A stretch of 64,000 nt of DNA from a virus. The translations under genes were made by a program, and so were the position numbers. Positions 1,743 through 63,439 of this stretch are shown piece by piece. The stretch covers positions 25,838-89,837 of the IMG/VR virus record IMGVR_UViG_3300013099_000002, one strand, 5' to 3'. Numbering within the stretch: the stretch's first letter is position 1; the number at the start of each line of letters is the position of its first letter. Under the pieces are notes generated by a model that worked only from the letters and a program-made list of their open reading frames with translations, was not told where the DNA came from and did no database searches.

Positions 1743-1940
1743 TTATTTCACTTCTAAGTTTGCAATTGATTGCACTGGGATTCTATACTCACTGTAATAC
1801 TCTTCTGGGTATACTTCATACCCACCTAATTCATTGAGCTTGTTAAGTATGGCTTCGTTGTTATGGTACCGCATACCCAATATCAGTTTTAGGTCTACAC
1901 AAGCATAACACCGATTCTTATAAACAAGCTCATCTTGCAT
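1743..1940 (-). CDS. hypothetical protein
   Basis: 65-aa ORF coupled to terL stop (TAATG). Confidence 0.6.
   Translation of the reverse strand: MQDELVYKNRCYACVDLKLILGMRYHNNEAILNKLNELGGYEVYPEEYYSEYRIPVQSIANLEVK
1761..1774. repeat. 14-bp near-palindrome TGCAATTGATTGCA (copy 1 of 14)
   Basis: Exact match. Confidence 0.95.
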
Positions 1941-3832
1941 TATTGCCCCCCTTTCATGTTATCTGCCGCAGCTTGTGATTCCAACGCGCCTACAACCGAC
2001 TGAGGTACCTTATTGAATGAAATACCATGCTTAAACCAAAGTTCTTTACGGGTCGTTAATCCATACACTACCCCACCTAATGAATCTGATACATCTTTTG
2101 TAGATGTACTGGGGTGGTCAATCTTCCCCTTCTTCTGGTCAATCTCCAAAGACAATAATTCATGCTTCAGTTTAGGATGTTCCGGTGTAGTTAATCTGCC
2201 ATCATAAATACAAGTCTTGAGAATATTATAGGGCATCGTGGTTCTGTCTAATGAGATTAAACCCGTTTTATATCCCTTCACACGAAGTATCTGTAAAAAA
2301 TCTGACGACTGAAAACTATCCAAGCTTACCCATTTAATGATTACCCCATATTCCGATAGCTTATAGATTAGAGACCGCAACTTATGGAACTGAATCTCAT
2401 CCCCTTTCGGTGGTTCAATCTCCAAGGTGAAGTCCATCTTTATGTTCGGTAATATTTCGTTTTCTAGCTCCCCACGTTTTATAGATTTAAAGTTCTTTAT
2501 GTAGCCCATACTTATACCGGCACTATCTCCGGTCAATGCCAAATCTAAATGCACCCAGCGCGGTTCTTGTAAATCCCGAAAGCGGTCAGGATAAATAGCT
2601 AATTGAGTATCCTTGAAATCAACCAACTCCCTTGATAAGATGGATAAATGATTAGGTTGGAATGCTTCCGCAACTTTCTCAGTATTCACCATGAAAGGAT
2701 GTTTCGCCAAGGTACTGACACCAGCAATTTCCCTCAATGAGTTCATTATATCGGTCTCGAATTCCGTTCTGTATTCCACCGGCACAGATATTACTAATTC
2801 AAGTTCATCTTTGTGTCGTTTCAAGTCCTTTTCATTTTTAAGTATATAAGGCTTCTTGGATTCATCCCCAATAAATACATTGAATCTGCCACCTAAAAAT
2901 CTATCAGGCGGTATAACATCCCACGAACGCTTATCATAAACATAAATGGTAGTTTTGCCGTCTCTCTCAATCTCGGTTTCTGCTTCATCCATCTTAATAT
3001 CCGTAAACTGACCAGGATACCGTTTTGAAGAAACCAAACACAATACTCCAGGCAATGAGCCCTTGCTCATAAACCTAGATTTTCTTCTTCGTGCCAATGA
3101 GTTGTACAGGGCTACCGCTTGGTCGTATGTACCTCCATCTACACTGTTTTTAGACCGCTCAGTAACCGCCATGTAGTTTAATTCATCAATCACACCGCCT
3201 ATTACATTTTGCCCTATAGCGGCTGTCTCTTGCCCCGATACAGGTATCACTTCTATTCTGTTTGGAAACTTTAATTTCGATTCAAGATTCTTATCGAACA
3301 TAAAATGCTTAGTGAAATATTCACTGTTTTCAACCATGGCTTTAAATCGTGCAAAGTCAACCTGCTTGGCTAACCCTGCATTTATTGATTGGAAGATGAA
3401 TATTATCTCTGATGCTGGGTCAAGCCCGAACTGTTCGTGGGGGGTTCTTAGGCATGATAATAAATATAATTGATAAGCGGTAGTATACAAGGCTAACGTG
3501 GTCTTACCACAACCAATAGAGCCTGTAAGTACCGCTTCAGTATACTTACCGTTATTCAGTTCCAGCATACATTTCATTATTTCTGGATACAGAGCGTTTG
3601 GGGTTCCTAACAAGGTATCTTCCGCAATAAACACGTTTGCTGGTACCGGTAAGCGTTTATATTTCTTTTCTATTTCGGATACTATACCGTGGTGCCTTGC
3701 CTTCAATATCTCCAAGAAAAATTCTTTATGATATGGAGGTATTTCGGTATCAATTATCTGATTAATTCTATCATTTTTAATTTGCTGGTTCGACTTCTTC
3801 AAAGACACCACTATCTCCTTGTATAACTTCAA
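1940..3832 (-). CDS. terL: terminase large subunit
   Basis: Walker A LTGSIGCGKTT, Walker B GVIDE, RNase H-like nuclease VHLDLA..D and C-terminal IDHP...KDVSD. Confidence 0.9.
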   Translation of the reverse strand: MKLYKEIVVSLKKSNQQIKNDRINQIIDTEIPPYHKEFFLEILKARHHGIVSEIEKKYKRLPVPANVFIAEDTLLGTPNALYPEIMKCMLELNNGKYTEAVLTGSIGCGKTTLALYTTAYQLYLLSCLRTPHEQFGLDPASEIIFIFQSINAGLAKQVDFARFKAMVENSEYFTKHFMFDKNLESKLKFPNRIEVIPVSGQETAAIGQNVIGGVIDELNYMAVTERSKNSVDGGTYDQAVALYNSLARRRKSRFMSKGSLPGVLCLVSSKRYPGQFTDIKMDEAETEIERDGKTTIYVYDKRSWDVIPPDRFLGGRFNVFIGDESKKPYILKNEKDLKRHKDELELVISVPVEYRTEFETDIMNSLREIAGVSTLAKHPFMVNTEKVAEAFQPNHLSILSRELVDFKDTQLAIYPDRFRDLQEPRWVHLDLALTGDSAGISMGYIKNFKSIKRGELENEILPNIKMDFTLEIEPPKGDEIQFHKLRSLIYKLSEYGVIIKWVSLDSFQSSDFLQILRVKGYKTGLISLDRTTMPYNILKTCIYDGRLTTPEHPKLKHELLSLEIDQKKGKIDHPSTSTKDVSDSLGGVVYGLTTRKELWFKHGISFNKVPQSVVGALESQAAADNMKGGQ

Positions 3833-4388
3833 TTAAACTACCAATAACCGAATCGACCTTCCCGTAAGTTAGTTCAACTTTATTGTTTACTGGTTCCTGT
3901 AGTATTAACGTGGCATCATCCACCATACCTAGAGCCTTACGCTCATTCTCAACACCGAACCGCATAAAATCTAACGCTTCCCTAACAGATAATTTATCTG
4001 GGTCTACCTTATCAATCTTAGCCATTGCCTTCATCATAACTTTACGAGACAAAGCTAAATGCCGTTGCCGTACTGCAAGCTCATCATTGATATTTTTTGC
4101 TTGTAGTTTCGCTATTGCCTTCTTCTTATTCCCAAGCAGTAAAGCTTCATCCACCGCATCTTGTCCTTCGGCAAACATCCCATTTAATTCTTCATACCAT
4201 TTTTCTTTTGCCGCCCGATTCTGCAAAGTACCAATGTTTAGCTTATGTTTAGCCGCCAACTTCAAAAAGGTCATGCTGTTTTTCTTTTCAAGATTGCATT
4301 TAAAGAAATCAGCTTTTATATCATCCCATGGTATCTTTGCAGTATAGGCATTTTTTACCCTATTTTTTTTGATTATCTTTATAGGCAT
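3777..4388 (-). CDS. terS: terminase small subunit (putative)
   Basis: Immediately upstream of terL; W..IK..F, LAAKH.L..GTL..RA.KEKW HTH-like N-terminus and helical body. Confidence 0.7.
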   Translation of the reverse strand: MPIKIIKKNRVKNAYTAKIPWDDIKADFFKCNLEKKNSMTFLKLAAKHKLNIGTLQNRAAKEKWYEELNGMFAEGQDAVDEALLLGNKKKAIAKLQAKNINDELAVRQRHLALSRKVMMKAMAKIDKVDPDKLSVREALDFMRFGVENERKALGMVDDATLILQEPVNNKVELTYGKVDSVIGSLIEVIQGDSGVFEEVEPAN

Positions 4389-4398: not shown

Positions 4399-5028
4399 TT
4401 AAGCGTTTTTGTCTTTTCTTAATCTAGTAATGGTTTTCTCTAATCTGGCTCGGTTCAGCTCATTACCAACGAAAGACATATTATTATCTATACACGCTTG
4501 AGCCGTGTATCCCATACCACAACATAAGTCCATACCTAGCCCTCCATCAGCCGGTCTAAGCAACTTAAATACTTCTCTTGTACATTTGTACCCTTTCAAG
4601 TGATAAATGGGCGTAGCATCCAATGGCATCTTCCCTTCGGTATGGAAGAATATAATCTCCATTGGTAAGTTTTGCCCAGAATATACGGTTTCAATCTGAG
4701 TACAATAAGTCAATCCTGCCTCTTCAGCAAAATCAATTACTTTTTGAATCCACCGCTTACCATATTCGATAACCACCCAACCTTCGGTTTTATCTGCGGC
4801 ATGAGACAACACTGTTTTAAGGAATACATCCACATCGAAATTACCAGTTGAAGTGTCTATATTGTTCATCTTCTTATTCATGGTGTCCCAGTATTTTAAG
4901 TTACCAGAACCCCACGGAGGGTCTGAGTAATAAATATCTGCTTTACGGTTCCCGACAAGTGTAGCTATACCCTTCTCATCGTGAATATCTCCGTGTCGTA
5001 TTCTGTGCTTGCCTATATTTTTAATCAT
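4399..5028 (-). CDS. amino-DNA methyltransferase-like protein (beta class)
   Basis: Motif IV SDPPW followed by motif I DLCCGMG and GNEL. Confidence 0.8.
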   Translation of the reverse strand: MIKNIGKHRIRHGDIHDEKGIATLVGNRKADIYYSDPPWGSGNLKYWDTMNKKMNNIDTSTGNFDVDVFLKTVLSHAADKTEGWVVIEYGKRWIQKVIDFAEEAGLTYCTQIETVYSGQNLPMEIIFFHTEGKMPLDATPIYHLKGYKCTREVFKLLRPADGGLGMDLCCGMGYTAQACIDNNMSFVGNELNRARLEKTITRLRKDKNA

Positions 5029-5753
5029 ACCTTTTTGCCTTTACGTTTAATAGTTACACCTTTAGAATTCTTCGGTGCAATTGATTGCAATTTTTCTGCT
5101 TCATTAAAGTTCTTTTTAATCTGCAGTTGTTTTTTGGTTTCCCACGCTTTTGCATAGTCAGTATCCTCAAACAATTTGGAGAAACCGGTTACATGTTTAA
5201 GCTTTAATAGTTCTTCGGGTTCCATGCCCAACTCATTACAAATTTGAGCATCCTCCCAACCATTATCAAGCATTTCAAATACCATGCTGGACATACCGTT
5301 TACAGAATGCTTCCCCCGTGCCCTATTATGGCGAACTGTTGAGGCCATTCTGTCATTGATGTTTGAGTTGATTACCACCACCGGTAACTTACCCAAATTC
5401 ATTTCAGTAATATCCTTATTATTAAGCATAGTGAAGTATCTGTGAAACCCATCAACAATCACATAGGTATCAGTTTCTTCATCGTGTATGGTCACTACAG
5501 GCTGTGTATAACCATCATGCTTGATAGATGTATGCAATAATTTTAATTCAACGGAAGCAACGCTATTAGGGTTGTAATCGTTTGGCTTAACTTTCGCAAT
5601 ATCCACCCACCGAATTAAATCTACCGGCTGATGTTTTCGTGGAGAAATACTGTTATGCAAATATTCACGCAACTCATAAAGAAATGCATCTTTATCTTTT
5701 GCTGAATCGTAAGCCTCTTTTATTTCTTCTTTTAAGTGTTTTTTTATGCTCAT
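5025..5753 (-). CDS. ParB/Srx-domain protein, IbrB-like
   Basis: PNDYNPN, SI..DGYTQPVV, IVDGFHR, STVRHNRARG, then a short HTH (EDAQICNELGM). Confidence 0.85.
   Translation of the reverse strand: MSIKKHLKEEIKEAYDSAKDKDAFLYELREYLHNSISPRKHQPVDLIRWVDIAKVKPNDYNPNSVASVELKLLHTSIKHDGYTQPVVTIHDEETDTYVIVDGFHRYFTMLNNKDITEMNLGKLPVVVINSNINDRMASTVRHNRARGKHSVNGMSSMVFEMLDNGWEDAQICNELGMEPEELLKLKHVTGFSKLFEDTDYAKAWETKKQLQIKKNFNEAEKLQSIAPKNSKGVTIKRKGKKV
5076..5089. repeat. 14-bp near-palindrome (copy 2)
   Basis: TGCAATTGATTGCA exact, within ParB C-terminal tail. Confidence 0.95.
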
Positions 5754-6909
5754 ATTCTTTTAAATCCAAGATGTATTTATTGTTTACGTTATTAGGTCTT
5801 TCAACCCCACGAATGAAAGCTCTATATTCACGAACATCAGATATAGTTTCAAAATTACCCAACTTTGCCCCTGTATCATTAGTCATTACTGCAACTATAT
5901 TAGAGCGCAAATACAGGTCTCTAATTAATGGAGACTGATAGTATTTATCATGCCCCTCAAAATATTTTTTAAACTTCCCACGCACCTCAGAATCAGTAAC
6001 TAAATGCTTAACCAAATAGTCTCGGTATTCCATCCAATCCTTAAACATATAAGGTAATTGTTTAGGTGGAGAAATGCTTTCCTTCTGTAAATGACCTGCG
6101 GTATTTATCCCTTGCAATCGCTTGGTTAGTTTTTCCCAAACCTTCGGGTCAATCTCTTGTAGGATATAAAGATTCTGTATAGCAGTTTCATGGTGTAAAT
6201 TAGAAACCCTCATATTATTTACTGTAATACCATATTGATACATCCTATCGTACAGCTCACAATACTCCCACTTATTATCATGTATAGCCTTCCAAACATC
6301 TTTATATCCCCAATCGTAAATAGGGTAAAAAGTGAAATGGTTTAGCTTCTTGGTTAGTATCTTTCCCCATGTAATAAATTTATAAGTAACCGCACCAGTT
6401 AAGCCTAAGTAGCGTGCTGGTGATTCTTGGGTTCTTACACCCCCCAAATTAGCCGTAGATTGCCCTTTAAATTCTTTTCGGATAATGGCATCAAATAATT
6501 CATAAAACCTGTCTGTGCCGTAAGTATTCTCTTTAATACTTATAGGGTCTTTTGGATGCACCCAGTTTTCTTCTTCACCTTCCTTCCAACAATACAACCA
6601 AGGGTCAGTTGTTGAAGTCGAATTAGTTATCTTTATCGGCATCTGGAACCAATAAGGTTTTATCCTTGGGTCATGCATTACCTTTTTCATATAGGTTTGC
6701 ACAAAGCTCCATTCCGCTTCTTGGTCTATAAATATTACATTTAGTGGTAATCGTTTTCTTTCTTCGGCAACAATTAAGGCCAACTGTAAACAAATTGTGC
6801 TATCTTTTCCCCCCGAAAAACTTACTGTTATGTTTTCAAATTCATCATACAAGTATCGAATTCTATCTAATGCCGCCTCGTATACACTCTTATTAGTAAA
6901 AATTTTCAT
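5692..6909 (-). CDS. PAPS-reductase-like (PP-loop) protein, IbrA/DUF3440-like
   Basis: SFSGGKDS PP-loop, FIDQEAE, GVRTQES..R, YPIYDW...DVW, MRVS..HH. Confidence 0.85.
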   Translation of the reverse strand: MKIFTNKSVYEAALDRIRYLYDEFENITVSFSGGKDSTICLQLALIVAEERKRLPLNVIFIDQEAEWSFVQTYMKKVMHDPRIKPYWFQMPIKITNSTSTTDPWLYCWKEGEEENWVHPKDPISIKENTYGTDRFYELFDAIIRKEFKGQSTANLGGVRTQESPARYLGLTGAVTYKFITWGKILTKKLNHFTFYPIYDWGYKDVWKAIHDNKWEYCELYDRMYQYGITVNNMRVSNLHHETAIQNLYILQEIDPKVWEKLTKRLQGINTAGHLQKESISPPKQLPYMFKDWMEYRDYLVKHLVTDSEVRGKFKKYFEGHDKYYQSPLIRDLYLRSNIVAVMTNDTGAKLGNFETISDVREYRAFIRGVERPNNVNNKYILDLKEYEHKKTLKRRNKRGLRFSKR

Positions 6910-7288
6910 ACACTACCTTGGTATTTTTATTCTTATACATCGCTATTATTTTTGCCCCTGCTTTCAAGTGTGAGTTTAATGCCATTGGTGTTACGCTTGA
7001 ATAAATAGTATCAATCGAATTATCCGCAGCAAAAGACTTTATCCTTATTAATGTTTTTGCTAAGGCACCCCGACCTCTATATCTTGTTGTGACAAAATTA
7101 TGCATGATATTTCCAGTGGTATTTGAATAAGAAAAACAACAAACACCAACCAAAGTATTGCTACTGAATACCCCAAGCCATAAATCCCTTTTCCTGTATT
7201 GGAATGTTTGAGGCATCCCTACGAAAACAGAATATTTTTCAGCCTCATCAATAGTAATACTTTTTATCCGTAAATACCCCCGTTTCAT
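6893..7288 (-). CDS. GNAT-family acetyltransferase
   Basis: LVG..., FV...YRGRG acetyl-CoA binding motif A. Confidence 0.65.
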   Translation of the reverse strand: MKRGYLRIKSITIDEAEKYSVFVGMPQTFQYRKRDLWLGVFSSNTLVGVCCFSYSNTTGNIMHNFVTTRYRGRGALAKTLIRIKSFAADNSIDTIYSSVTPMALNSHLKAGAKIIAMYKNKNTKVVYENFY

Positions 7289-7575
7289 TTCTCCTTAGCC
7301 TTATTTATAAGTCGGGTATATGGTGAGCCATCGGGTCTATTAAGTGGGCAGCCCATAGTCCAGTAACGGTACCCATCTATAATAAGTATAATATACTGGG
7401 TTTTGCCAAACATTACCTTTTTACCATTCTTTCTTATGTACATCACCACGGCACAAAATAAGGCATCATCCTCCCAATTTTTTCTTAAAGTATAATAGTG
7501 AGGATTCTTTGGCATAGACTTAGCGAACGTCCATTTTAATTTTTCAAATATTGCACCAACCTCTGGATTATCCAT
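7285..7575 (-). CDS. conserved hypothetical protein
   Basis: W.FAKSMP..PH.Y...YWTMG.P motif; coupled within operon. Confidence 0.7.
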   Translation of the reverse strand: MDNPEVGAIFEKLKWTFAKSMPKNPHYYTLRKNWEDDALFCAVVMYIRKNGKKVMFGKTQYIILIIDGYRYWTMGCPLNRPDGSPYTRLINKAKEK

Positions 7576-8180
7576 TAAACCCTCACATCGAAAGTTTCAG
7601 CGCAATGAGGGCAAATCACTTCTAAAGTTTCTTCCGTGTTATCTTTGAATTTATCATCCAACTCTTTAGCCGTTTTATCCATATCACCATCCTCAACTTC
7701 TGAGTAATTTTTTGAGGTAGGATTTATCTCCGGTGTAAAACCCGAACCATCCAATTCTGCGGCCTCAGATAGAGCTAATAATTCTTCTTCAATATCTGCC
7801 ATGTCTTGTTCACCAAAACCCATTATATTGAAATCAATTTCATCAGATTCTTGTAGTGCAACCAGCTCCGCATTTAAGGCTTCAACATCCCATTCAGAAT
7901 TCATAGCTAATTTATTATCAGCTAACATATAAGCACGTTTTTGGATGTCAGATAATCCTTCAATTATCACCACCCGTACCTTAGTTTTTTTCAGTAAAGT
8001 AAGGGCCTCAAATCGACAATGCCCTGCCAAAATCCCAAAGTTTTCATCCACTACGATAGGGTTTGTATATCCGAATTCTTCAATGCTCGCAATCACTTCA
8101 TTCACCTGTTCTTCGGTGTGAATTCGCACGTTATTTTCAGAAGGAATTAGTTGTTTTAGGGGTATAATTTTTGTTTTCAT
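7575..8180 (-). CDS. ParB N-terminal-domain protein with C-terminal CPxC ribbon
   Basis: N.R.H...QV..VIASIEEFGYTNPIVVD...ILAGH.R, ADNKLA..SEWD, terminal CPHC. Confidence 0.85.
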   Translation of the reverse strand: MKTKIIPLKQLIPSENNVRIHTEEQVNEVIASIEEFGYTNPIVVDENFGILAGHCRFEALTLLKKTKVRVVIIEGLSDIQKRAYMLADNKLAMNSEWDVEALNAELVALQESDEIDFNIMGFGEQDMADIEEELLALSEAAELDGSGFTPEINPTSKNYSEVEDGDMDKTAKELDDKFKDNTEETLEVICPHCAETFDVRV

Positions 8181-8477: not shown

Positions 8478-8491
8478 TGCAATTGATTGCA
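8478..8491. repeat. 14-bp near-palindrome (copy 3)
   Basis: TGCAATTGATTGCA exact, intergenic. Confidence 0.95.
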
Positions 8492-13205: not shown

Positions 13206-14066
13206 TTAATCCACTTCTGCAGTTAAGGAAACATCAGGCCATAATTCTTCAAATATTTCTAGTACCTCTTCCCATGAAGAGCCTTTCATTGTATCTTTTA
13301 ATGATTTAGGTTTAGGTGCCTTCTTAGGTTTGTTACCAGACAAATATGCCAAACAAATAGATTCCATTGCCACGTTAGCAAATTCCGTGTCAGCATCATT
13401 TTTAGCCTTATCCACGGCATCATTGATGACCTCTTTTTGGTCATCATGCACCTTAAAGGTTAAGGTTGATAATTTAGTTGATTCTTCCATTGCATCTGGA
13501 GCATCTTCATCATCCTCGTCATCAGAGGCAGTCGAACCTTTTTGTTGTTCTTTGATGTAGGCTTGTAATTGAATCACGGTTAGCTCGGAAGCAATTTCCA
13601 CCCATTCATCAACATTTTCTTCATTGATAATATCGCACAGTTCTTTCAGTTTAGACCAACCCAAACCTTCAACCTTTTCCCATGGAATATTAGCTTCAAC
13701 CAAGCCGTTATAAATCCCAACCATATACATTGCTTTACGATAACCAAGCCCATATTCTTCTTCAACAAAAGATTTGAAATTATCAAAACCCTCATCAGTG
13801 TACCAACCATTTGATTGAATAACCGATAGAACCCCACCCAACTGAAAATATGAAAAGTCAATATCTTGAGCCAATTTTGAAACCATGGCATAAGCTTTCA
13901 CCTTGGTTAAATTTTCAAGTTTGTGAGCGGTATCGACAATTAAATCAGATTTTGCTTTGGTAGCAGTTTTTGGTTTTACTGCTGTGGTAGTTTTTGGTTT
14001 CGCAGTTGTTGTTTTTTTACCTGCCGCAACTTTCGCAGCAGTTGTTGTTTTTTTAGCTTCAGCCAT
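13206..14066 (-). CDS. hypothetical protein with Lys/Thr/Ala-rich N-terminus
   Basis: Long ORF; start reassigned to MAEAKK (GGAG RBS). Confidence 0.8.
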   Translation of the reverse strand: MAEAKKTTTAAKVAAGKKTTTAKPKTTTAVKPKTATKAKSDLIVDTAHKLENLTKVKAYAMVSKLAQDIDFSYFQLGGVLSVIQSNGWYTDEGFDNFKSFVEEEYGLGYRKAMYMVGIYNGLVEANIPWEKVEGLGWSKLKELCDIINEENVDEWVEIASELTVIQLQAYIKEQQKGSTASDDEDDEDAPDAMEESTKLSTLTFKVHDDQKEVINDAVDKAKNDADTEFANVAMESICLAYLSGNKPKKAPKPKSLKDTMKGSSWEEVLEIFEELWPDVSLTAEVD

Positions 14067-14243: not shown

Positions 14244-14275
14244 TTTTTTAATCCGTTTCGTTTAATGTGAGCTTC

Positions 14276-14303
14276 ATTATACGCATATAATTTTAATTGT
14301 CAA
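14276..14303 (-). promoter_or_regulatory. sigma70-type promoter
   Basis: TTGACA-16nt-TATAAT. Confidence 0.85.
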
Positions 14304-14315
14304 ATTTAATTTTAA

Positions 14316-14876
14316 TCATATTTCACTATTTGCAATCAATTGCAATTTTTCTATATCTTTAGGATGTTTCTTAGCCCACTCTGTTAAAGCGGTTGCATTA
14401 ACTTTAGGGACTTTTACATACCCCAATAAACCCAAACCAAATTGAGCTAAACAAAAAGCATCGACCTCATTATCAGTCCCTTCTAGGTGCCAACGCTTGT
14501 AAGTTTCCAACATCATAACATCTTTCTTTACATTACCTTTACCAGAAACGAACTTTTTTAATGAAGTTGGGGGTATATCTAAAATAAGCACTCGGTATAA
14601 ATGCAACGTGTATTTAATCACTGTACCCACTTCAACCAGCGTTACCAGTGTGTGCTTATTAGCGAACCCGTAGCCCTCAATTATGCAAACATCAGGCTCA
14701 TACTTATCCAGTAATTCATAAAGCCTGTCTGCGAATGCTTTTAATCGTGGCATCCCTTTTAGTGTTGGAAAGTTCCATTCCTGCTTATACAGTAAATTTA
14801 TTTTTTCTTCCCCGTGTTTCAATTCCAAGATAACCACGCCTGTTTTAGTTGAAGTATCCAACCCTAAAACAATCAT
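14316..14876 (-). CDS. RuvC-like Holliday junction resolvase
   Basis: VLGLDTS..TG, IIEGY, P...LKKFVSGKGN..K, DNEVDA. Confidence 0.88.
   Translation of the reverse strand: MIVLGLDTSTKTGVVILELKHGEEKINLLYKQEWNFPTLKGMPRLKAFADRLYELLDKYEPDVCIIEGYGFANKHTLVTLVEVGTVIKYTLHLYRVLILDIPPTSLKKFVSGKGNVKKDVMMLETYKRWHLEGTDNEVDAFCLAQFGLGLLGYVKVPKVNATALTEWAKKHPKDIEKLQLIANSEI
14331..14344. repeat. 14-bp near-palindrome (copy 4)
   Basis: TGCAATCAATTGCA exact, in RuvC C-terminal tail. Confidence 0.95.
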
Positions 14877-15354: not shown

Positions 15355-16281
15355 TTATGTTTCTTTTTTATTCCACGTTATTTGAGCTGGGTATTTTCCA
15401 GAAAAACACTCAGATACAACTGGGCAGGTTTTTGCCCGTTTACAAAATGAAGTATTACATACACCATCAGGCATCTTGCCGTTACCCCGAAACTTTTTAA
15501 TCAGCTTCGCCTTCCGTGTAAATATTAAGGTAGTTGAATCATCCCTATGAACAGTGAATTCTTTGAAAGGTGAAAAGGCCGCATCTTTCAACCCCATCAG
15601 TTTTAATGATTCATCTTTACAACCAAACCCTTTACACACGTAAAGAATATTAGCCACCTCAGTATTTACCCTATCGTGAAGCTCTGTGGTGTCCTCAGCG
15701 ACTAAACGCATATAAAGGTTTGTCCTTATCCGATGTTCGGCTAAAGGGGCTACTAACGCTTTAAATGCATCCGAAGCCATGGTCTTAATTTCATAGATTC
15801 GATATTTAGGTTCTCCGGTAATAATCAAGGCATCAATGCCGCCTGATATTCCAGATATTTTTGATAAGGGTCTTGGTTCCTCATACTGCCAATTATGGTC
15901 AATACCAGATTTAGTAAAGCAATGGCCTTTTGTTGGTTTCCTACATAACTGCTTTATTTCACCACAATTTCTGCATACCCAATTACCCACCATAATATCT
16001 TCAAGATAAACCTCATTGATTCGTCTTTGTAAATCCTCCCCATGGTGGAATGTGGTTCTAAGTGAAGTCCCAATAAATTCATCCCTTCGTTTTTTGCCGG
16101 TAATATCTACTAAGCAATATTCCCTTGGGCAAAATTCCTTATCCCCTTTAGTCACATCAGAAGCGTGAATATTATGCATAGGTCTTGCTTCTTGAACACC
16201 TGCAATTTTTTCATGCAAAATCTTCTTTAAACTAAATGCATTTTTGTTTTTTAGTTTCTTAGTTATTTTTAATGGCATCAA
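15355..16281 (-). CDS. Cas4-like PD-(D/E)XK exonuclease
   Basis: HAS...CPR, G...H, GGID.L, YEIKT, C-terminal Cys cluster. Confidence 0.75.
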   Translation of the reverse strand: MMPLKITKKLKNKNAFSLKKILHEKIAGVQEARPMHNIHASDVTKGDKEFCPREYCLVDITGKKRRDEFIGTSLRTTFHHGEDLQRRINEVYLEDIMVGNWVCRNCGEIKQLCRKPTKGHCFTKSGIDHNWQYEEPRPLSKISGISGGIDALIITGEPKYRIYEIKTMASDAFKALVAPLAEHRIRTNLYMRLVAEDTTELHDRVNTEVANILYVCKGFGCKDESLKLMGLKDAAFSPFKEFTVHRDDSTTLIFTRKAKLIKKFRGNGKMPDGVCNTSFCKRAKTCPVVSECFSGKYPAQITWNKKET

Positions 16282-18168: not shown

Positions 18169-18182
18169 TGCAATTGATTGCA
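18169..18182. repeat. 14-bp near-palindrome (copy 5)
   Basis: TGCAATTGATTGCA exact, just upstream of recA RBS. Confidence 0.95.
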
Positions 18183-18183: not shown

Positions 18184-18660
18184 TTATTCTTTGTGAGTTG
18201 ATATTTCTGATTGTAGCTCTTCAATCTTGTCATCCACCCACGTTTTTGCAAATTCGTAAGTATCTTCAATTTCCTCATGTGAGCAAGGTACATGAAGCGA
18301 TACTTGCGCCTTTACATTTTCATAATTGCCGATATTAACGGTAAGCCCCAAACTTATACCCACATTTACTGTAGGCCCTACATAGTTTGAGGCATTGGCT
18401 AATTTAATCTGAATATTCTTCGTGGTGCCATCTGGATACTCAAGACTTACATTCCCAGTTGGTTCCTTCATGTTGAATATTTCGCCATCAGAAACTTCAT
18501 CACCATCAACCAACAATTTAGTTTCCTTAGATTGTTTAGCAATATCTTTGGTTTCTGGTTTCTTTGCAACGGTTTTTTTCGCTACAGGTTTTTGTTTTGC
18601 TTTTTTCGGTGCTTCTTCTTCTTCCGTGGCGGTACTTTTCTTTTTTATTTTTACTGGCAT
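18184..18660 (-). CDS. hypothetical protein
   Basis: V.ISLG.T.NIGNYEN.K..V motif; MPVKIKKK N-terminus. Confidence 0.75.
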   Translation of the reverse strand: MPVKIKKKSTATEEEEAPKKAKQKPVAKKTVAKKPETKDIAKQSKETKLLVDGDEVSDGEIFNMKEPTGNVSLEYPDGTTKNIQIKLANASNYVGPTVNVGISLGLTVNIGNYENVKAQVSLHVPCSHEEIEDTYEFAKTWVDDKIEELQSEISTHKE

Positions 18661-19146
18661 TTATTTCTCCCAATTATGGAACACAATTTTTGAGGCTTCT
18701 TTTAAATCCTGCTCGGCATCTAATTTAGCCCCACTCAATCCTCTCCTAATATCGGCAAAGGTACATAATAATTTTACTTGATTAACAGTGTAGTATTTAT
18801 TCCGTTTATCATCTTGAATAAAACCGGTAGGAATATCTTTATTTTTTATCCACAACCGGATAGTTTGTAGACCTCTACCAATTAAAGTACAGGCATCTTT
18901 TATGGAATAACATTCAAGGGTTTTTCTGCCGTGTAAATTTAATGTCACCACTTCAAAAGAATCAAACGGTTTTCTTGGTTTGGGTTTCCGTTTTGACTTC
19001 TTGGCATTTTCAAGGCGTACCTTTTCCCTATAATTTGGGTCGTTTTTATATCGTTCCCTTCGTTGCTCATTGAAATCCGCTTTATTGTCATCGTACCACT
19101 TTTTAAAGGGTTTCTTTTTTGGTCGTTTCTTAATTTTAACTGGCAT
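18661..19146 (-). CDS. MerR-like HTH DNA-binding protein
   Basis: YSIKDAC.LIGR..QTIR.W.....IP......R.YT..QV. Confidence 0.65.
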   Translation of the reverse strand: MPVKIKKRPKKKPFKKWYDDNKADFNEQRRERYKNDPNYREKVRLENAKKSKRKPKPRKPFDSFEVVTLNLHGRKTLECYSIKDACTLIGRGLQTIRLWIKNKDIPTGFIQDDKRNKYYTVNQVKLLCTFADIRRGLSGAKLDAEQDLKEASKIVFHNWEK

Positions 19147-19180: not shown

Positions 19181-19209
19181 ATTATAATTTATTTAAGGCT
19201 AGAAGTCAA
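19181..19209 (-). promoter_or_regulatory. sigma70-type promoter
   Basis: TTGACT-17nt-TATAAT. Confidence 0.75.
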
Positions 19210-23053: not shown

Positions 23054-23166
23054 AATAACTCCAAAAAAAAAGGACAAGTTGCCAGTACCCACTCATCCCG
23101 ATTCTGAACATCACACGGTTCAGAACCGAGAGCTTGCAGGAATTTTACAATCCGTTGTTCATCCAT
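23050..23166 (-). pseudogene. truncated duplicate of primase N-terminus (38 aa)
   Basis: Hand translation MDEQRIVKFLQALGSEPCDVQNRDEWVLATCPFFLELL* versus primase MDEQRIHKFLKALGSEPCENQNRDDWVLATCVF. Confidence 0.9.
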
Positions 23167-23642
23167 TATGCAAGGGCATTAACCTTCACAGTTCTGGCAT
23201 TAAGTCGCTCAATTTGTGTGACTGCTTTTATTTCATTTGGTGTCAGGTATTGTTTTAATTCAGTCAATTTAAAAGAAATCAGTTTGAGTACCAATGCTTC
23301 ATCAATATTATCCAGCAAATCAATAATTCTTGACTTATCAGTAATCGTGGTTTTATTTCCCTTCATCCCAATATCAGCTAAATAATCATCAGTGGTTATC
23401 ACCGCTTTTTTATCAGCATCATATTGCTCATCAGCCAACACCAATAATTCTGCCTTAGCAGTTGAATAAGTTTCCTGTAATGGCATTAAGGCTTGAGCGT
23501 GGCGTTCCATTGCTTTTTGAGTTACGCCCATCACATCCACCAATTCTTTGATAGCATCAGATTGTATTGCCGCTTTTGCTTTTGAAGCAAGTTTCTTTTT
23601 AGATGTGGTTTTTGTTTTCTTCTTATTAATTGTTACTGGCAT
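23166..23642 (-). CDS. hypothetical protein
   Basis: 158-aa ORF after promoter; MPVTINKKK N-terminus. Confidence 0.8.
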   Translation of the reverse strand: MPVTINKKKTKTTSKKKLASKAKAAIQSDAIKELVDVMGVTQKAMERHAQALMPLQETYSTAKAELLVLADEQYDADKKAVITTDDYLADIGMKGNKTTITDKSRIIDLLDNIDEALVLKLISFKLTELKQYLTPNEIKAVTQIERLNARTVKVNALA

Positions 23643-23700
23643 TTTTGTTACCCCATTGGTTTAAGCCTCATTCCCGAAGTAGGAATGATAGCGTAGGTTA

Positions 23701-23740: not shown

Positions 23741-23754
23741 TGCAATCAATTGCA
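23741..23754. repeat. 14-bp near-palindrome (copy 6)
   Basis: TGCAATCAATTGCA exact, 12 bp upstream of a -35 box. Confidence 0.95.
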
Positions 23755-27397: not shown

Positions 27398-28647
27398 ATT
27401 GTTACTAGATATTGTTTCACCGCTTTATAAACCATACTTGTCAGGTCAGCATGGCTTACGGCAGGATAATAAACTGTTAGCTCTTCATCGGTTTCTGTTT
27501 TCGGGAACTTATCCAACTCAATAATATTCTCCCAAATAACATCAAAAGGTTTTCCTTCAATGCAATCAATTTCATATTCCACATAACCGAAGTTTTCAAG
27601 TATACCTACCATTAACTCATTAGCAGATTCACAGCTTGTTATTCCATTAAAATCAAATATGTCATCAATCCTTCCAGCCCTGTACAGCTCTTTAGGGAGT
27701 ATTTCGGCATCATTGGTGGTCATTATGGTAAGAACTCTTGAATCACGTTCCTGAAGCCACCACAGGACTGCAGATAGCATTCGTGAACTAACCCCCGAAT
27801 CATCCCCAGCTTTAATTGATTTTTCAATCTCATCAAACAACAATACGCATGGCTGGCAGTTATCGACAATAGCTAATGCATTGGCAAGGTTTTCTTCTGA
27901 TTCACCTACATATTTTCCCATCAATGCCCCAAGGTCAATTCTGTAAAGTGGAACACCTAATTGATTAGCCAAATATTTAGCTCCCAAAGTTTTACCAGCT
28001 CCAGGAATACCATCAAATAATAAGCCTTTTGGAACCAGTACCGGCTCAACACCATAATCAACAAATATTTTTCCTTCAATTGCCAACCATTTCTTTAAAA
28101 ATGAAGGTGGTTTGTAATAATCGTACTTAGTTGAAACTTGTTGTATACCTTGCAATCGCCCAACGTAAATTCTACGGGTTTCCATTATCGCCCGTGGAGT
28201 CAATTCCTTAAATTTAGTTTGGGCTAACCGGCATATTTCCCCAACATCTTTTAAACACAATCCGCTTAGTGTTGCCGCCAAGGGTTGTACAGTTTCCTCA
28301 TCAGTTAAATTAGATAAAAAATCAAGTAACATACCTTGAGGTAGTTGCACCACACCGGCATCAAACATTAAGGGGCTAGAATCGCTTGGATTGATTACTA
28401 TGAGGGTTTTTTCTGAGTCAACCATACATTCATAAGCCATATAGTAATTTACGTTCTCAGGATGCAATAAATAGAAATACTGGGTTTCGGGTTCAAAGTC
28501 CTCTTGTTTGATTTTTTTAATATGGTTTTCGTCAATAAGCATAACCGATTCATCTACAATGTAAGATAAAACATCCCCTACATTTACAGTGTCATCGGTT
28601 GTTACCTTGATAAGTGGAAGTCCTGATTTTAATGATAGTTCAAGCAT
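27394..28647 (-). CDS. AAA+ ATPase (Ycf46-like)
   Basis: GLLFDGIPGAGKT, L.RIDLG.L.GKYVGESE, LLFDEIEK, TTN....LP.EL.RAGR.D. Confidence 0.88.
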   Translation of the reverse strand: MLELSLKSGLPLIKVTTDDTVNVGDVLSYIVDESVMLIDENHIKKIKQEDFEPETQYFYLLHPENVNYYMAYECMVDSEKTLIVINPSDSSPLMFDAGVVQLPQGMLLDFLSNLTDEETVQPLAATLSGLCLKDVGEICRLAQTKFKELTPRAIMETRRIYVGRLQGIQQVSTKYDYYKPPSFLKKWLAIEGKIFVDYGVEPVLVPKGLLFDGIPGAGKTLGAKYLANQLGVPLYRIDLGALMGKYVGESEENLANALAIVDNCQPCVLLFDEIEKSIKAGDDSGVSSRMLSAVLWWLQERDSRVLTIMTTNDAEILPKELYRAGRIDDIFDFNGITSCESANELMVGILENFGYVEYEIDCIEGKPFDVIWENIIELDKFPKTETDEELTVYYPAVSHADLTSMVYKAVKQYLVTI

Positions 28648-28914: not shown

Positions 28915-29210
28915 TCCTTTAGTTTGTGGTGGTTTATACAGTCGGTTTGATTATCGAACACTAATTCCCGACCAGATAAATTAAGTGGTATCCCCATTCG
29001 ATTAGCTAAATTAACGAAATCATTTTGATGCCCCATTAAAAGCATGTGACCGGCACATTGAAGCGTGGTTTCTTTGTGGCATACAAAACTACCAGCCATT
29101 AAAATTTCAATCATACGTTCTTTACCAAGCCACCCAAGTAAACTGTCTTTACGAAAAGGACAAGCACCACAAGGTTTCTTTACGTTAGGTAATTTCATTG
29201 GTTTTTGCAA
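28911..29210 (-). CDS. Cys-rich conserved phage protein
   Basis: KPC..CPFRKD...GWLG, F.CH, QCAG; true start may be ATG at 29198. Confidence 0.7.
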   Translation of the reverse strand: MQKPMKLPNVKKPCGACPFRKDSLLGWLGKERMIEILMAGSFVCHKETTLQCAGHMLLMGHQNDFVNLANRMGIPLNLSGRELVFDNQTDCINHHKLKE

Positions 29211-29219
29211 TTGATTGCA
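29206..29219. repeat. 14-bp near-palindrome (copy 7)
   Basis: TGCAATTGATTGCA exact, downstream of a promoter at the translation start region. Confidence 0.95.
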
Positions 29220-30733: not shown

Positions 30734-30747
30734 TGCAATCAATTGCA
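30734..30747. repeat. 14-bp near-palindrome (copy 8)
   Basis: TGCAATCAATTGCA exact, intergenic. Confidence 0.95.
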
Positions 30748-36338: not shown

Positions 36339-36352
36339 TGCAATCAATTGCA
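36339..36352. repeat. 14-bp near-palindrome (copy 9)
   Basis: TGCAATCAATTGCA exact, intergenic. Confidence 0.95.
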
Positions 36353-37761: not shown

Positions 37762-40301
37762 TATGCTGTCTCCATTAAAAATTGAATTTGTCTATCACTT
37801 ATCGCGTATTGGGCCTCGTAATTTATGCTTTTAGTTTCATAAACTATTTCAAGTAACCCAAATCTATCTACCAAGCTTGTTGATTTTACCTGCTTACCGG
37901 AAAATGTGATTCCACCTAAATTAGTATCAAGCCAAGATATTGATACCACGGACTCTATAGGATACTTAACCGAACCACTACCATCAAATATCTCTATTAT
38001 CTCAGTTTCGGTTCTGGTTATCTCACCTAGTTTAGATAACAACACCCCTACAGGCCCCGTATGAGTGATATTAATATCTCTGAATGGGCTTGGGTACGCC
38101 TTTAAAATTCCGGCTGTAGAATCATCTTCCTTAACTATAAATTCTATAGTATCGGCATCCGTTGAATTAACACTTTGGTCTCGTATAGCAATCTTATTAA
38201 GTTCTTTGGAGAAACCCTGACCTTCAACAACCGAAATATTGTCATCTGAATCAGTATAAGTTTGGTCTATTATAGAAATACCGTAATCAGGTACTTTTAT
38301 CTTATGTCTAGGTCTTACCAACAAACTACCATCTGGTTTTGTTTCCACAACACCGCCTGCTGATTTTGCAATCAATTGCACAAGTTCTATTGGAGTAATA
38401 TCACTTACCCCTAAAGCAAAGGCTGGGATAGTCCAATTAACTAATTGCCAATCAATCACCTCACCACCTAAGAACTCTTCTGCGGCATCTTTAGCTAAAA
38501 CCGGTGTATCCCATAATTTAGATATGCTTTCGCCTCGTGGTGAAGCTAATAAGGCCGTTGGTGATAATCCTGACACTGATAAACCAACCTCCGAAGGATT
38601 AGACCTATTTAAGCCTTTAGAATCCACAATTAACTCGAATAATTCCCCGAATAAATTAACAGTGAATGCATCCCCGTTAGTAAATTTTTGGTAGTCCTCA
38701 ATTTTTGCCAAGATCACAACACCTAACCATGCATAACCATCTTCATCTTGAGAAAGACTGGCATCAATAATTTCTATTAATTCGCCATTCAATTCGACAA
38801 AAGGAACATCAGTAATATTAACAATAGTTGTTGCCCCTACATTGTAAATATTCTTATGCTGATTAATTACGAAATCACGTTGTTTTAATTCCCACCCTGC
38901 TTCATTTTGCTGGGCTAATAAAGTCGTCATGCTCCAATTAGATTCATTGGAACTAACAATAAAACTTCTGGAAGAATAAGTTTGTTTATTGCTGTTAGAA
39001 ACCTTTAATAAATCCCCTGCTTCATGTTGGTTGCGAACACTAGCTAATAATTTAACTGCATAAGGTAATTCTTGTTCCGCAACAACCTTAACTTTAATTG
39101 AATAGCCATTAGCGTTGTCATTGGTAACTCTAAGTAAACTAGAAGCCTCATGCTGGGTTGTTACTTCACCTAGTAATTTAATGTCATAAGAAAATTCGTT
39201 ACTTGAATTTTCCACAATCCGAAGTGAATAAGTATCTTCAAAAGAATTGGAAACTTTTAATAAGCTTGGTGCTTCATGTTGAGCTACAACAGGGTCATGT
39301 AAATTAATGTCATAAGTAATCTCTGAAGCATTAACTGTTCTGCCTCTAACAGCGTAATTAATCTCAGTTATATTTTGAACTTTTAATAAGCTTGGTGCTT
39401 CATGTTGATTACTAACCGTAACCAATGCCTTATTATCATAGTCATAAGTAAACTGATTAGGTATTCTAGTATTTAAGGAATAATCCACCGTATGCCCAGC
39501 AGAGACAGTAAATAAGCTTTGTGCATTAAATTGGTAAGAAACTTTAACGCCATGTACCGCTTCAAACTGCTTATGAATTCTAAAAGATGAAGGTGCTACA
39601 TGTTGGTTAAAGGTATACTTGGTTAAATAATAAACCGCATCATTGGAGCTTCTAACCCTTGTTTCACCAAAAACATAACCGGCTTCGTGTCCTTCTTTCG
39701 GAAAGATACCTGAATCAAATACAGACTTATGTTGTGCCCCAACCTGTATAGAAAATGGGGTTAAATGAGAATTGGAAACACGTAAACTTTGTACCGCTTC
39801 ATGCTGGACAGAAACTTTAATACCATAAGCACTTGAATTCTGACTATCAACATTATCTTCAAAGATATGAAAGTTTGTTGAGTGTTGTTCAACACTATAA
39901 AATCTAGCAGTGTAAATAAGTGAATGTTGATTTTTTACAAATAATAAATCTTGAAAAGAAGCTTCATGTTGATTTTGTTGTCTAGGTTTATCTTCAAAAC
40001 CTGCTTCATGTTGAGCATGTATTTTCCCATCCCCAACAATGGTACCAACAACCTCAGTAATCTGTGAATTTATTAAACCGAAATTAACAACAGAGCTATT
40101 AACAGTACCGGATACGCCTTCAACAGTAACGGTGGTTTCACCGGTTCCTTCAATTATTGAATTAGCACCAACTAACCCAAAATTCACTGTTGAGCTGTTT
40201 ACCGTACCGGATATAATAACATCGGGCACTACAATGCCTTCAGCTTCCGTTACCGCACCGCCTACAAGTATCTCATTAATAGCACTGTCATTAATTGCCA
40301 T
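37761..40301 (-). CDS. large tail protein with QHEA repeats and hub-like C-terminus
   Basis: More than 10 QH(E/S)A-type repeats; C-terminal TPIE....IA...GG.V...PDG.L.V. Confidence 0.65.
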   Translation of the reverse strand: MAINDSAINEILVGGAVTEAEGIVVPDVIISGTVNSSTVNFGLVGANSIIEGTGETTVTVEGVSGTVNSSVVNFGLINSQITEVVGTIVGDGKIHAQHEAGFEDKPRQQNQHEASFQDLLFVKNQHSLIYTARFYSVEQHSTNFHIFEDNVDSQNSSAYGIKVSVQHEAVQSLRVSNSHLTPFSIQVGAQHKSVFDSGIFPKEGHEAGYVFGETRVRSSNDAVYYLTKYTFNQHVAPSSFRIHKQFEAVHGVKVSYQFNAQSLFTVSAGHTVDYSLNTRIPNQFTYDYDNKALVTVSNQHEAPSLLKVQNITEINYAVRGRTVNASEITYDINLHDPVVAQHEAPSLLKVSNSFEDTYSLRIVENSSNEFSYDIKLLGEVTTQHEASSLLRVTNDNANGYSIKVKVVAEQELPYAVKLLASVRNQHEAGDLLKVSNSNKQTYSSRSFIVSSNESNWSMTTLLAQQNEAGWELKQRDFVINQHKNIYNVGATTIVNITDVPFVELNGELIEIIDASLSQDEDGYAWLGVVILAKIEDYQKFTNGDAFTVNLFGELFELIVDSKGLNRSNPSEVGLSVSGLSPTALLASPRGESISKLWDTPVLAKDAAEEFLGGEVIDWQLVNWTIPAFALGVSDITPIELVQLIAKSAGGVVETKPDGSLLVRPRHKIKVPDYGISIIDQTYTDSDDNISVVEGQGFSKELNKIAIRDQSVNSTDADTIEFIVKEDDSTAGILKAYPSPFRDINITHTGPVGVLLSKLGEITRTETEIIEIFDGSGSVKYPIESVVSISWLDTNLGGITFSGKQVKSTSLVDRFGLLEIVYETKSINYEAQYAISDRQIQFLMETA
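38367..38380. repeat. 14-bp near-palindrome (copy 10)
   Basis: TGCAATCAATTGCA exact, intragenic (VQLIA). Confidence 0.95.
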
Positions 40302-47311: not shown

Positions 47312-47325
47312 TGCAATTGATTGCA
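47312..47325. repeat. 14-bp near-palindrome (copy 11)
   Basis: TGCAATTGATTGCA exact, intergenic. Confidence 0.95.
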
Positions 47326-52807: not shown

Positions 52808-53425
52808 TATCCTTTTCCATTTTCTTTGCGAGTTTCAAAAATTCTTTATGCTCAGAATGATACGCCAAACGCATGTGCATCATGTTAGTAAACTGTTCTG
52901 AGGATTGTCGTTTTTTTGCAAGGCTGAAAAATCCGTAAAGCTGTTTTATCGGGTATGTGAATACTTTATCAATAGCATGTCCATTAGCTATTAAATATTC
53001 CGCAGCTACCTCAAGTTCCGAAAGCCAATCATCGAAGATTATTTCTTCGTTGCTGGTGCCGGTAGGTCGAGGTTTTCCATCCCCTCTGTGAGACTGCGTA
53101 TCATGTTTCCCAATTCAGCAGTATCTACCGCTGTTAGTTCCCAGATTTTTTGCAATGCAATCAATTGCACTCCAAAAGGTAATGATTTTACATTATCAAT
53201 ATGTTCTGGTTCCCCTGCTGAGTAAGCTATGAGCTTCGCTACGAGTACAGGTGATTCCTTTAACAATTCAGTAAAATCCAGCTTACCATCAAACAAAGAA
53301 GCTATTTCCTTTGTATGCTCTTTTAACAGTCCGGCTAACGCCTCCAGTGTCAAGCCTTGAACCTCAAAATCCCCGTGAGGACTCTCTATCTTCTCTTTAA
53401 TAGCAACTAAATCTGCTAAACTCAT
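52800..53425 (-). CDS. tail assembly chaperone, -1 frameshift extended form (gpGT-like)
   Basis: Slippery G GGA AAC at 53105-53111; -1 frame open to TGA at 52800, overlapping the tape measure start. Confidence 0.8.
53039..53425 (-). CDS. tail assembly chaperone (gpG-like)
   Basis: Between major tail protein and tape measure. Confidence 0.8.
   Translation of the reverse strand: MSLADLVAIKEKIESPHGDFEVQGLTLEALAGLLKEHTKEIASLFDGKLDFTELLKESPVLVAKLIAYSAGEPEHIDNVKSLPFGVQLIALQKIWELTAVDTAELGNMIRSLTEGMENLDLPAPATKK
53156..53169. repeat. 14-bp near-palindrome (copy 12)
   Basis: TGCAATCAATTGCA exact, intragenic (VQLIA). Confidence 0.95.
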
Positions 53426-54575: not shown

Positions 54576-55016
54576 TCAACTGGTAAGTAACACAACCGTT
54601 TTCCAACGCTGAACATAGCCCAAAACCGCAGGACTTATTTCAGTTGGAGACTCTGCAACAAATTGCCATTTTCTTTGTGCCCCAGCTCTTACAAGTTTAG
54701 TACAAGCAATTTCCCTTCTCATTTCATCAAGTAATAATGTTGAGCCGGATTTTAAATCACCTATCTTATCCTTGCATTGTTCCCCACCTATCAAATAAAT
54801 ATCACAAACTAAGGTTGCCGCTAACCCAGTTCTACTTGAATCATTATTCCCTTGCATACCAACATAAACCACCCCAACCGCAGGGAACCCTATTTTCTTT
54901 TTGGCATCAAGTAAATCATCTTGGTCATAAAGGTAAACAGTTTTCTTGGCAATAGATGAAATCAATTGCAATTTAGACGTTAAATCTGCCACCGCATCTG
55001 AAACTATGTCAGCCAT
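54576..55016 (-). CDS. tail terminator-like protein
   Basis: Position before major tail gene; PAVGVVY.G and Y.Q.W motifs. Confidence 0.6.
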   Translation of the reverse strand: MADIVSDAVADLTSKLQLISSIAKKTVYLYDQDDLLDAKKKIGFPAVGVVYVGMQGNNDSSRTGLAATLVCDIYLIGGEQCKDKIGDLKSGSTLLLDEMRREIACTKLVRAGAQRKWQFVAESPTEISPAVLGYVQRWKTVVLLTS

Positions 55017-59866: not shown

Positions 59867-59880
59867 TGCAATCAATTGCA
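59867..59880. repeat. 14-bp near-palindrome (copy 13)
   Basis: TGCAATCAATTGCA exact, intergenic. Confidence 0.95.
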
Positions 59881-61584: not shown

Positions 61585-61587
61585 TTT

Positions 61588-63414: not shown

Positions 63415-63425
63415 ATTTTCCTCAT

Positions 63426-63439
63426 TGCAATTGATTGCA
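63426..63439. repeat. 14-bp near-palindrome (copy 14)
   Basis: TGCAATTGATTGCA exact, just upstream of portal RBS. Confidence 0.95.

Follow-up and report, generated by a model that had tools for sequence, protein, structure and literature searches.

What is a 14-bp near-palindrome doing at regular intervals along a phage genome? The window analyzed here, 64,000 nucleotides of viral DNA (bases 25838–89837 of the 89,837-bp IMG/VR virus record IMGVR_UViG_3300013099_000002, which we call G000), contains 14 exact copies of the sequence TGCAAT(CA/TG)ATTGCA, and the whole record contains 21. G000 has a GC content of 0.379, a 123-bp terminal repeat and all of its long open reading frames (ORFs) on the minus strand. 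Our comparisons point to a lattice of protein-binding sites on the DNA, and to a protein encoded within the window, g065, as a candidate for the protein that reads it.

A near-palindrome recurs at regular intervals

A first-pass annotation of the window, made from its letters alone, had reported 14 exact copies with seven in each orientation, one-mismatch copies at 27561 and 54957, and a chance expectation of about 0.001 copies. Our recount recovered every start and both one-mismatch copies; TGCAATCAATTGCA reads on the plus strand at seven window sites and on the minus strand at the other seven (10:11 over all G000 copies), and 0.0008 exact copies are expected in the window from its composition. 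Copies with up to two mismatches numbered 33, compared with a mean of 1.1 in 100 dinucleotide shuffles. The sites in the window and the gene of the candidate reader are as follows (G001 and TM16 are related genomes described below).

1761..1774, minus: exact site in the tail of a 65-amino-acid ORF; an early sigma70 promoter (−35 box TTGACA) lies 20 nt downstream of the site
5076..5089, minus: exact site within the 3′ end of the ParB_N gene at 5025–5753; the G001 counterpart is TGCAACCAATTGCA
8478..8491, minus: exact site, 2 nt past a stop codon and followed by an intrinsic-terminator-like hairpin
13206..14066, minus: gene of the candidate reader g065 (286 amino acids, phrog_17202, no Pfam match)
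14331..14344, plus: exact site in the last codons of a RuvC-like gene, with the promoter preceding g065 located 27 nt downstream; this RuvC/g065 junction is occupied in 8 of 10 genomes
18169..18182, minus: exact site, 1 nt past the p158 stop codon, with the start of the RecA-like gene 14 nt on; junction kept in six genomes
23741..23754, plus: exact site adjoining the stop codon of a DnaB-like gene; a consensus promoter (TTGACA-17-TATAAT) follows 12 nt on
27561..27574, plus: one-mismatch copy TGCAATCAATTTCA, intragenic
29206..29219, minus: exact site in an intergenic leader, with a −10-like box ~30 nt upstream of the site
30734..30747, plus: exact site, 1 nt past a stop codon and ahead of the next Shine-Dalgarno sequence
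36339..36352, plus: exact site with a stop codon 4 nt before it and the next start 17 nt after it; the G001 counterpart is TGAAATTGATTGCA
38367..38380, plus: exact site deep in an 846-amino-acid tail gene, read as VQLIA
47312..47325, minus: exact site adjoining a stop codon, with the next start 17 nt on
53156..53169, plus: exact site in a 128-amino-acid gene, at the same position in G001
54957..54970, plus: one-mismatch copy TGAAATCAATTGCA
59867..59880, plus: exact site, 30 nt ahead of the prohead protease gene; junction occupied in 8–9 genomes, including TM16 with its own variant motif
63426..63439, minus: exact site, with the portal start 11 nt on; junction kept in six genomes

The even spread that the annotation had described held up against null models. 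Across the whole genome, the coefficient of variation of site spacing was 0.43, which is more regular than uniform placement (P = 1.5e-4) and also more regular than randomly drawn gene junctions (P < 5e-5). The sites favor non-coding DNA, in which 11 of the 21 G000 copies lie wholly, compared with a non-coding background of 10% (P = 1.6e-6). In the direction of transcription, 8 of the 21 start 0–4 nt past a stop codon, and about 8 lie 7–17 nt 5′ of the following start, preceding its Shine-Dalgarno sequence; four precede the −35 box of a recurring early promoter (aaatTTGACAATTAAAATTAT..GTATAAT) by 7–27 nt, and about five lie deep within genes. The five intragenic copies in the window are all read in the frame xTG-CAA-(TCA/TTG)-ATT-GCA, giving (V/L)Q(S/L)IA as annotated, and three of them end 12–48 nt short of the stop codon, in agreement with the C-terminal placement that had been noted. 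Sites also occur as doublets: at G000:C1:8850-8910, outside the window, the variant TGCAATCTTAATTGCA, in which the spacer is 4 nt long, comes 6 nt after an exact site, and at G001:C1:56238-56261 two exact sites overlap, 10 bp apart.

The motif is conserved across a family of large phages

The annotation had considered the window only. We scanned IMG/VR for the exact 14-mer and then counted copies over whole records, which showed the motif to be common to a phage family. Ten relatives (G001–G010) carry 18–50 exact copies per record over a GC span of 0.38–0.62, for example:

G001: 18 copies, GC 0.376
G007: 30 copies, GC 0.469
G002: 39 copies, GC 0.548
G003: 47 copies, GC 0.554
G006: 22 copies, GC 0.606
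G004: 50 copies, GC 0.624

Among cultured phages, Stenotrophomonas phage Summit (Delepquintavirus) has 26 exact copies and Rhodobacter phage RcZahn has 5, together with variants. The core proteins of these exact-motif relatives are ~35–55% identical to those of G000; megablast of 20 kb of G000 DNA against cultured phages found no match, and the G000 portal is at most 46% identical to any cultured-phage portal. A literature search for the exact motif string returned no match, and the DLP3 and RcZahn papers make no mention of the motif. It is a deeply conserved, regularly spaced cis-element of a large, environmentally widespread phage family that includes the Stenotrophomonas maltophilia therapy isolates DLP3, DLP5 and Summit.

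Spacing was regular in seven of eight genomes (P ≤ 0.005). Information content is limited to 18–20 bp around the site, within which the outer palindromic base pair is lineage-specific (C..G, T..A or G..C) and the 3′ flank is consistently a bit better kept than the 5′ flank. Orientation is strongly skewed in some genomes (29:1 in G007, and also in RcZahn and Vibrio phage MS03) and unbiased in others (G000, G001 and G006). More distant members carry sister motifs: GTGCAA-CATA-TTGCAC in TM16, TTTGAT-CTTAGT-ATCAAA in G011 and TG-N3-T-TAATTGCAAA in MS03. Among 80 further IMG/VR loci, there are some with TA or CG centers and some with arms of the forms GGCAA, TCCAA, TGACA, TGAAA, GGAAA, TGCAC and TGCAG. 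From one lineage to another, the copies of the site have changed in concert. The annotation's statement that the central dinucleotide is always CA/TG is thus correct for the exact-motif lineages and does not extend to the sister lineages, which have TA, CG or CATA centers. The densest lattice by far, at about one site per 0.4–0.8 kb, was that of L307 (IMGVR_UViG_3300025572_000001:66906-87616), a relative in which TGCAATTAATTGCA recurs as a perfect palindrome 27 times within 20.7 kb and its 11-mer core 56 times.

Individual sites are conserved as well. Between G000 and G001, 16–17 of the 21 positions are retained, and the seeming losses are in-place single-nucleotide variants (for example, TGCAACCAATTGCA three times). 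Over deeper divergence, sites still occupy the junctions 5′ of the portal gene, 5′ of the prohead protease gene, 3′ of the capsid gene, between p158 and the RecA-like gene, and between the RuvC-like gene and g065. Within a PPDK-like gene, a site falls at the identical codon in five genomes, the CA form encoding AINC and the TG form AIDC, and homologues lacking the site have unrelated residues at that position, which implies that the motif dictates the protein sequence there and that its orientation has flipped in place. On these comparisons we regard the motif copies as very probably a lattice of protein-binding sites.

A candidate reader in the replication–recombination module

g065 surfaced from unbiased clustering as a universal protein without an annotated function, present in all 12 genomes compared. 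Its family comprises 236 homologues on 80–111-kb contigs and has no Pfam domain; relatives also occur on large bacterial contigs, and the orthologue in Summit is gp66 (QZI85722.1). An AlphaFold2 model built from 58 sequences (mean predicted local distance difference test score, 82.7) has a disordered Lys-rich N-terminal tail, a confident helical domain (residues about 42–175) and a C-terminal helical domain. The first of these domains contains a helix-turn-helix (HTH) with a recognition helix at residues 109–125, in which R110, K111, A112 and Y114 stand at the start of the second HTH helix. From this model we infer that the DNA-binding domain of g065 (residues about 51–178) has a ParB/Noc/KorB-like HTH fold; the protein has no Pfam match to ParB_N, the disordered Lys-rich segment standing in place of a CTPase domain. 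The annotation's suggestion of parS-like sites thus lives on in changed form, in the inferred fold of a candidate reader that lacks the CTPase domain.

Co-variation of protein and site was examined in 79 distinct g065 sequences. R110, K111, A112 and Y114 were invariant in all ~30–40 sequences from canonical-motif loci, and in L338/L339 they were intact despite the loss of 17 of 37 near-invariant residues. Changes in or near this patch accompanied altered motifs in several lineages:

L265, TCCAA arms: R110S and Y114H, the sole near-invariant changes
L310/L311, GGCAA arms: K111T and A112I, the sole near-invariant changes
G011, motif TGATC...: A112C and K139I, the sole near-invariant changes
L267, motif possibly TGAAAT..ATTTCA: K111N, the sole near-invariant change
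TM16, CATA center: K111T, W129Y and G136P, with G78A and K172R elsewhere

Association with motif class reached P < 0.005 for columns V101, K141 and I237 and P = 0.012 for the four-residue patch; as a control, the best of 142 columns in four neighboring proteins of the same loci reached P = 0.019. In addition, 8 of 10 genomes have a site immediately 5′ of the g065 gene. The natural variants of the site (GGCAA and TCCAA arms, TA or CG centers, and the CATA center of TM16) provide ready-made material for specificity swaps.

Several observations weigh against g065. The co-variation statistics ignore phylogeny, and the variants represent about five independent lineages. Loci with TGACA (L278), TGAAA (L334), TGCAG (L326/L329) and TGCAC (L320) arms keep R110, K111, A112 and Y114, so those residues cannot explain all of the specificity, and at several g065-encoding loci, sites are scarce or absent over 20 kb. 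For a domain made up wholly of helices, the structural match is moderate: Foldseek against the PDB gave a best E value of 0.36, with DNA complexes of ParB, Noc and Spo0J recurring among the weak matches, and the score for the Raf1 alpha-domain equals that for ParB. A search of BFVD returned only uncharacterized viral proteins plus weak Spo0J-like and DUF3102 rows, and a g065 profile search of PDB sequences returned nothing meaningful. Finally, a simple symmetric dimer accounts neither for the CA/TG center, which is always asymmetric in the exact-motif lineages, nor for an orientation bias as strong as that of G007 when G000 has none. With these points included, we still think that g065 is probably the reader of the lattice.

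Two other universal replication-module proteins resemble g065 in having Lys/Ala/Thr/Pro-rich disordered N-terminal tails, namely g048 (23166-23531) and p158 (18184-18660), both encoded, like g065, on the minus strand. Several G000 proteins open with MPVKIKKK-like peptides.

Other possible readers and signals

The competing explanation that survives best is that the sites are read by another protein, either a small, fast-evolving phage regulator missed by BLAST and hidden Markov model clustering or a host factor, with the g065 co-variation reflecting mere shared ancestry. The phylogeny-blind and incomplete nature of that co-variation leaves room for this explanation, as do the g065-bearing loci without obvious sites and the many small G000 ORFs that have no detectable relatives outside G001. 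However, a motif that stays fixed over GC 0.38–0.62 and at ~40% core identity ought to have a reader that is itself conserved, no second universal candidate with a DNA-binding fold came out of the unbiased clustering or the profile searches, and control proteins from the same loci associate with motif class less than g065 does. A host factor is unlikely because it would have to be common to hosts of such differing composition and yet differ in Vibrio and Rhizobium. We therefore consider a different reader unlikely, though a serious alternative.

Other candidates were set aside during the search. p158, g048 and g046 are universal and lack visible DNA-reading features; g067, the presence pattern of which matches the exact-motif genomes, is a MazG-like pyrophosphatase; and a scan of 21 core proteins for specificity columns under a strict criterion found nothing convincing. 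Sigma-54 promoters, IHF, FNR/CRP and LacI-family (cre-like) sites were dropped after their consensus sequences or spacing had been compared by eye, as were serine-recombinase crossover sites, since with 29 direct repeats as its substrate such an enzyme would delete the genome.

The first-pass annotation had proposed protein-docking sites rather than classical operators, and had named as binders the ParB-domain proteins at 5025..5753 and 7575..8180, the HTH protein at 18661..19146 and the small terminase subunit, TerS. The general idea stands, as does the indifference of the sites to early and late regions; all three binders fail when genomes are compared. TerS-like p203 is conserved no further than G001, the nearest relative, and the same, or no conservation at all, holds for the methyltransferase-like p209.

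If the sites were parS-like loading sites for either ParB_N protein, motif and protein should travel together. Each of the 10 genomes with TGCAA-N4-TTGCA motifs does have some ParB_N ORF, and the ParB gene that precedes terS contains a site in its 3′ end in G000 and likewise in Summit. These ORFs are nevertheless not orthologous: those of Summit, G002, G003, RcZahn and TM16 are of one type, which the proteins of G000/G001, G004, G006 and G007 match over the ParB_N domain only, at ~25–36% identity. Moreover, not one site was seen over ±10 kb at 34 independent loci whose ParB shares 56–79% identity with 5025..5753, and G011 and MS03 have sister-motif lattices and no ParB_N protein. In G000, DGFHR replaces the CTP-binding motif GERRxR, and the ParB_N proteins belong to an IbrA/IbrB-like PAPS-reductase/methyltransferase module. 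We thus judge a ParB_N reader very unlikely. That module (4399-8180, minus) consists of ParB_N, a small ORF, GNAT, PAPS-reductase/DUF3440, the DGFHR-bearing ParB_N and a methyltransferase-like protein, followed by terS/terL. The 242-amino-acid ParB has at least 8000 homologues of 60–75% identity in unrelated phage contigs, and its sequence gave nothing meaningful in a search of the PDB. One such unrelated contig with a close homologue, L199 (IMGVR_UViG_3300024240_000005:15347-35988), has a dispersed 12-mer of its own, GCGCAGACCTTA, present 12 times in 20 kb.

A Chi-like signal, by which the phage recombination machinery (helicase, Cas4/RecB-family exonuclease, RecA-like protein and RuvC) would recognize its own DNA and spare it or steer it into recombination-dependent replication, would fit the regular spacing irrespective of gene identity, the orientation skew along the genomes of G007, RcZahn and MS03, and the universality of the recombination module. 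Among the core enzymes the helicase also has the most specificity-type columns. Those columns are conservative substitutions, however, and palindromic arms with co-varying outer pairs argue for a dimer on duplex DNA rather than a single-strand signal, which makes this possibility highly improbable.

Stoperators bound by the protein at 18661-19146, which the annotation called MerR-like and which has a weak HTH_17 match, are a most unlikely alternative. This protein (phrog_19880) is the sole annotated transcription-regulator-like protein of the replication module and is found in most family members. The gene is missing from RcZahn and TM16, both of which bear lattices and in which the helicase gene adjoins p158. 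The HTH region varies freely among genomes with identical motifs and shows no particular break in G011; the protein yielded a single weak specificity-type column.

Least credible is an RNA or single-strand DNA hairpin (a processing site, stability element or repetitive extragenic palindromic (REP)-like element): although the palindrome often lies directly past stop codons and ahead of Shine-Dalgarno sequences, and the copy upstream of the portal gene belongs to a stable extended hairpin, the site itself folds at about −3.3 kcal/mol (z about −0.7), with shuffled sequences folding at least as well at five of six sites, natural variants disrupt arm pairing without compensation, many sites in GC-rich relatives lie between a terminator and the following promoter, and conserved copies in long genes would mean cutting essential mRNAs. 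A REP-like or RNA-processing element would keep its pairing rather than its sequence, and here the sequence is exact over the full GC range of the family; an Rfam search matched no families and a tRNA search found none. Together, the weak hairpin, the pairing-breaking variants and the sites between terminators and promoters argue that the form of the motif that is recognized is duplex DNA and not RNA. The portal-upstream copy sits inside a longer hairpin at 63416-63449 (minus) of −12.6 kcal/mol (z −4.75), the outer stem of which pairs UCCUUAA with the portal Shine-Dalgarno region; this arrangement suggests a possible translational control of the portal.

What the lattice may do

Our proposal is that the 14-mer would be the core of a 16–18-bp near-palindromic binding site in duplex DNA, set out as a regular lattice, mainly in short intergenic gaps, along the unidirectional genomes of a family of ~80–110-kb siphoviruses. 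A dimer of g065 would bind each site through its ParB/Noc/KorB-type HTH domain and, because it has no CTPase domain, would stay on its sites instead of sliding off. The bound lattice may partition transcription genome-wide, acting as a roadblock, insulator or repressor much as stoperators or KorB operators do; almost as probably, it may instead organize or mark the phage chromosome as Noc does.

The relation of sites to promoters bears on this choice. Promoters with an upstream site (site end 4–27 nt before the −35 box) were counted in four genomes:

G000: 4 of 22 promoters
G003: 3 of 5 promoters
G004: 6 of 13 promoters
MS03: 4 of 15 promoters

Such placement is far commoner than chance and involves a fifth to a half of recognizable early promoters. 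Sites hardly ever lie just downstream of promoters, and many lie between a stop codon or terminator and the following gene. Both placements, the one before −35 boxes and the one separating a stop or terminator from the gene that follows, favor the partitioning of transcription. Set against this, ~75% of sites are away from any recognizable promoter. We found no fixed-distance partner element or composite promoter around the sites. In the promoter scan, run from stricter to looser settings, the coding strand had 22 promoter-like sites and the other strand 3. An early promoter cassette, aaatTTGACAATTAAAATTATnnnnGTATAAT, is highly conserved and occurs ~12 times in the genome (window 1700-1760, 14270-14330 and 23690-23740, and ~9 other places).

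A specificity frozen across distant phages, a reader gene in the universal replication–recombination module and regular spacing speak against immunity, and a housekeeping role in organizing or marking the chromosome fits them about as well as the transcriptional one does. We accordingly divide our expectation among a transcriptional role, an organizing role and something else, at roughly one third each. Stated more specifically, and tentatively, the lattice and its CTPase-less ParB-fold reader may constitute a core housekeeping system of chromosome marking, neither immunity nor partition, in which evenly spaced dimers would organize the phage DNA or mark it, be it for replication, recombination or packaging, or else tell it apart from that of the host. 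The frozen specificity would then follow from the need for dozens of sites and one protein to change together.

If g065 proves to be the reader, the ParB/Noc/KorB family would gain a branch that does without the CTPase, and a tractable model would be at hand for one protein co-evolving with dozens of sites. It could then be asked what need a phage has of chromosome marks at even spacing.

Comparison with known systems

Stoperators, KorB operators and Noc sites are the nearest parallels. The stoperators of Cluster A mycobacteriophages are bound by immunity repressors of the L5 gp71 type and consist of dozens of near-identical 13–14-bp sites distributed genome-wide (PMC6550527, PMC9283540). Like the lattice sites, stoperators occupy mostly short intergenic gaps and lie mostly off promoters, with a minority of true promoter-proximal operators; both systems have a site upstream of the gene of the binder, here the candidate reader, and a consensus that shifts between lineages along with the binder. 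The lattice family likewise includes phages reported to be temperate, DLP3 and DLP5, the latter as a phagemid with no integrase (PMC5834331). Stoperators differ in their asymmetry, in being bound by a monomer and in following the direction of transcription, whereas the lattice sites are near-palindromic and randomly oriented in G000 (though not in G007). g065, the candidate reader, would have the fold of ParB instead of that of a repressor, and the lattice is regularly spaced, with a specificity that is frozen across very distant phages rather than diversifying.

Near g065, the universal recombination module includes a Cas4/RecB-family exonuclease (phrog_2506; 15355-16278 and 19206-20549, minus), and in Cluster A mycobacteriophages a Cas4-family gene stands beside the stoperator repressor (PMC6550527). 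The proximity of a Cas4-family gene to the reader in both systems may be a coincidence.

KorB of plasmid RK2 governs a global regulon from its OB operators (PMC11790492). It carries an N-terminal CTPase domain and acts as a sliding clamp that is locked by KorA; g065, which lacks ParB_N and with it the basis for a CTP-dependent clamp, has only the disordered Lys-rich tail before its DNA-binding domain. The OB sequence is unrelated to the lattice site, and no KorA-like partner turned up, although no search was aimed at one.

Dispersed operators are also a feature of phage P1, a ~90-kb plasmid-prophage phage with about 17–20 operators for its C1 repressor distributed over the genome. Each of these is an asymmetric 17-mer overlapping a promoter, and the fold of C1 differs from that of g065.

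In ParABS systems the binder is a ParB_N CTPase with GERRxR and parS sites cluster near parAB; neither g065 nor the DGFHR-bearing ParB_N of the window has that motif, and the lattice sites are evenly dispersed. No ParA-like gene was found among the annotated or universal genes, without a search aimed at ParA. With respect to Noc and its binding sites (NBS) and to chromosomal ParB–parS (6y93, 4umk, 6t1f), g065 differs in belonging to a phage genome, in having no detectable sequence similarity and in lacking a CTPase or membrane-targeting N terminus. If chromosome marking is nonetheless what the lattice does, it would put the ParB DNA-binding fold to a new use and be the counterpart, among phages, of Noc/NBS.

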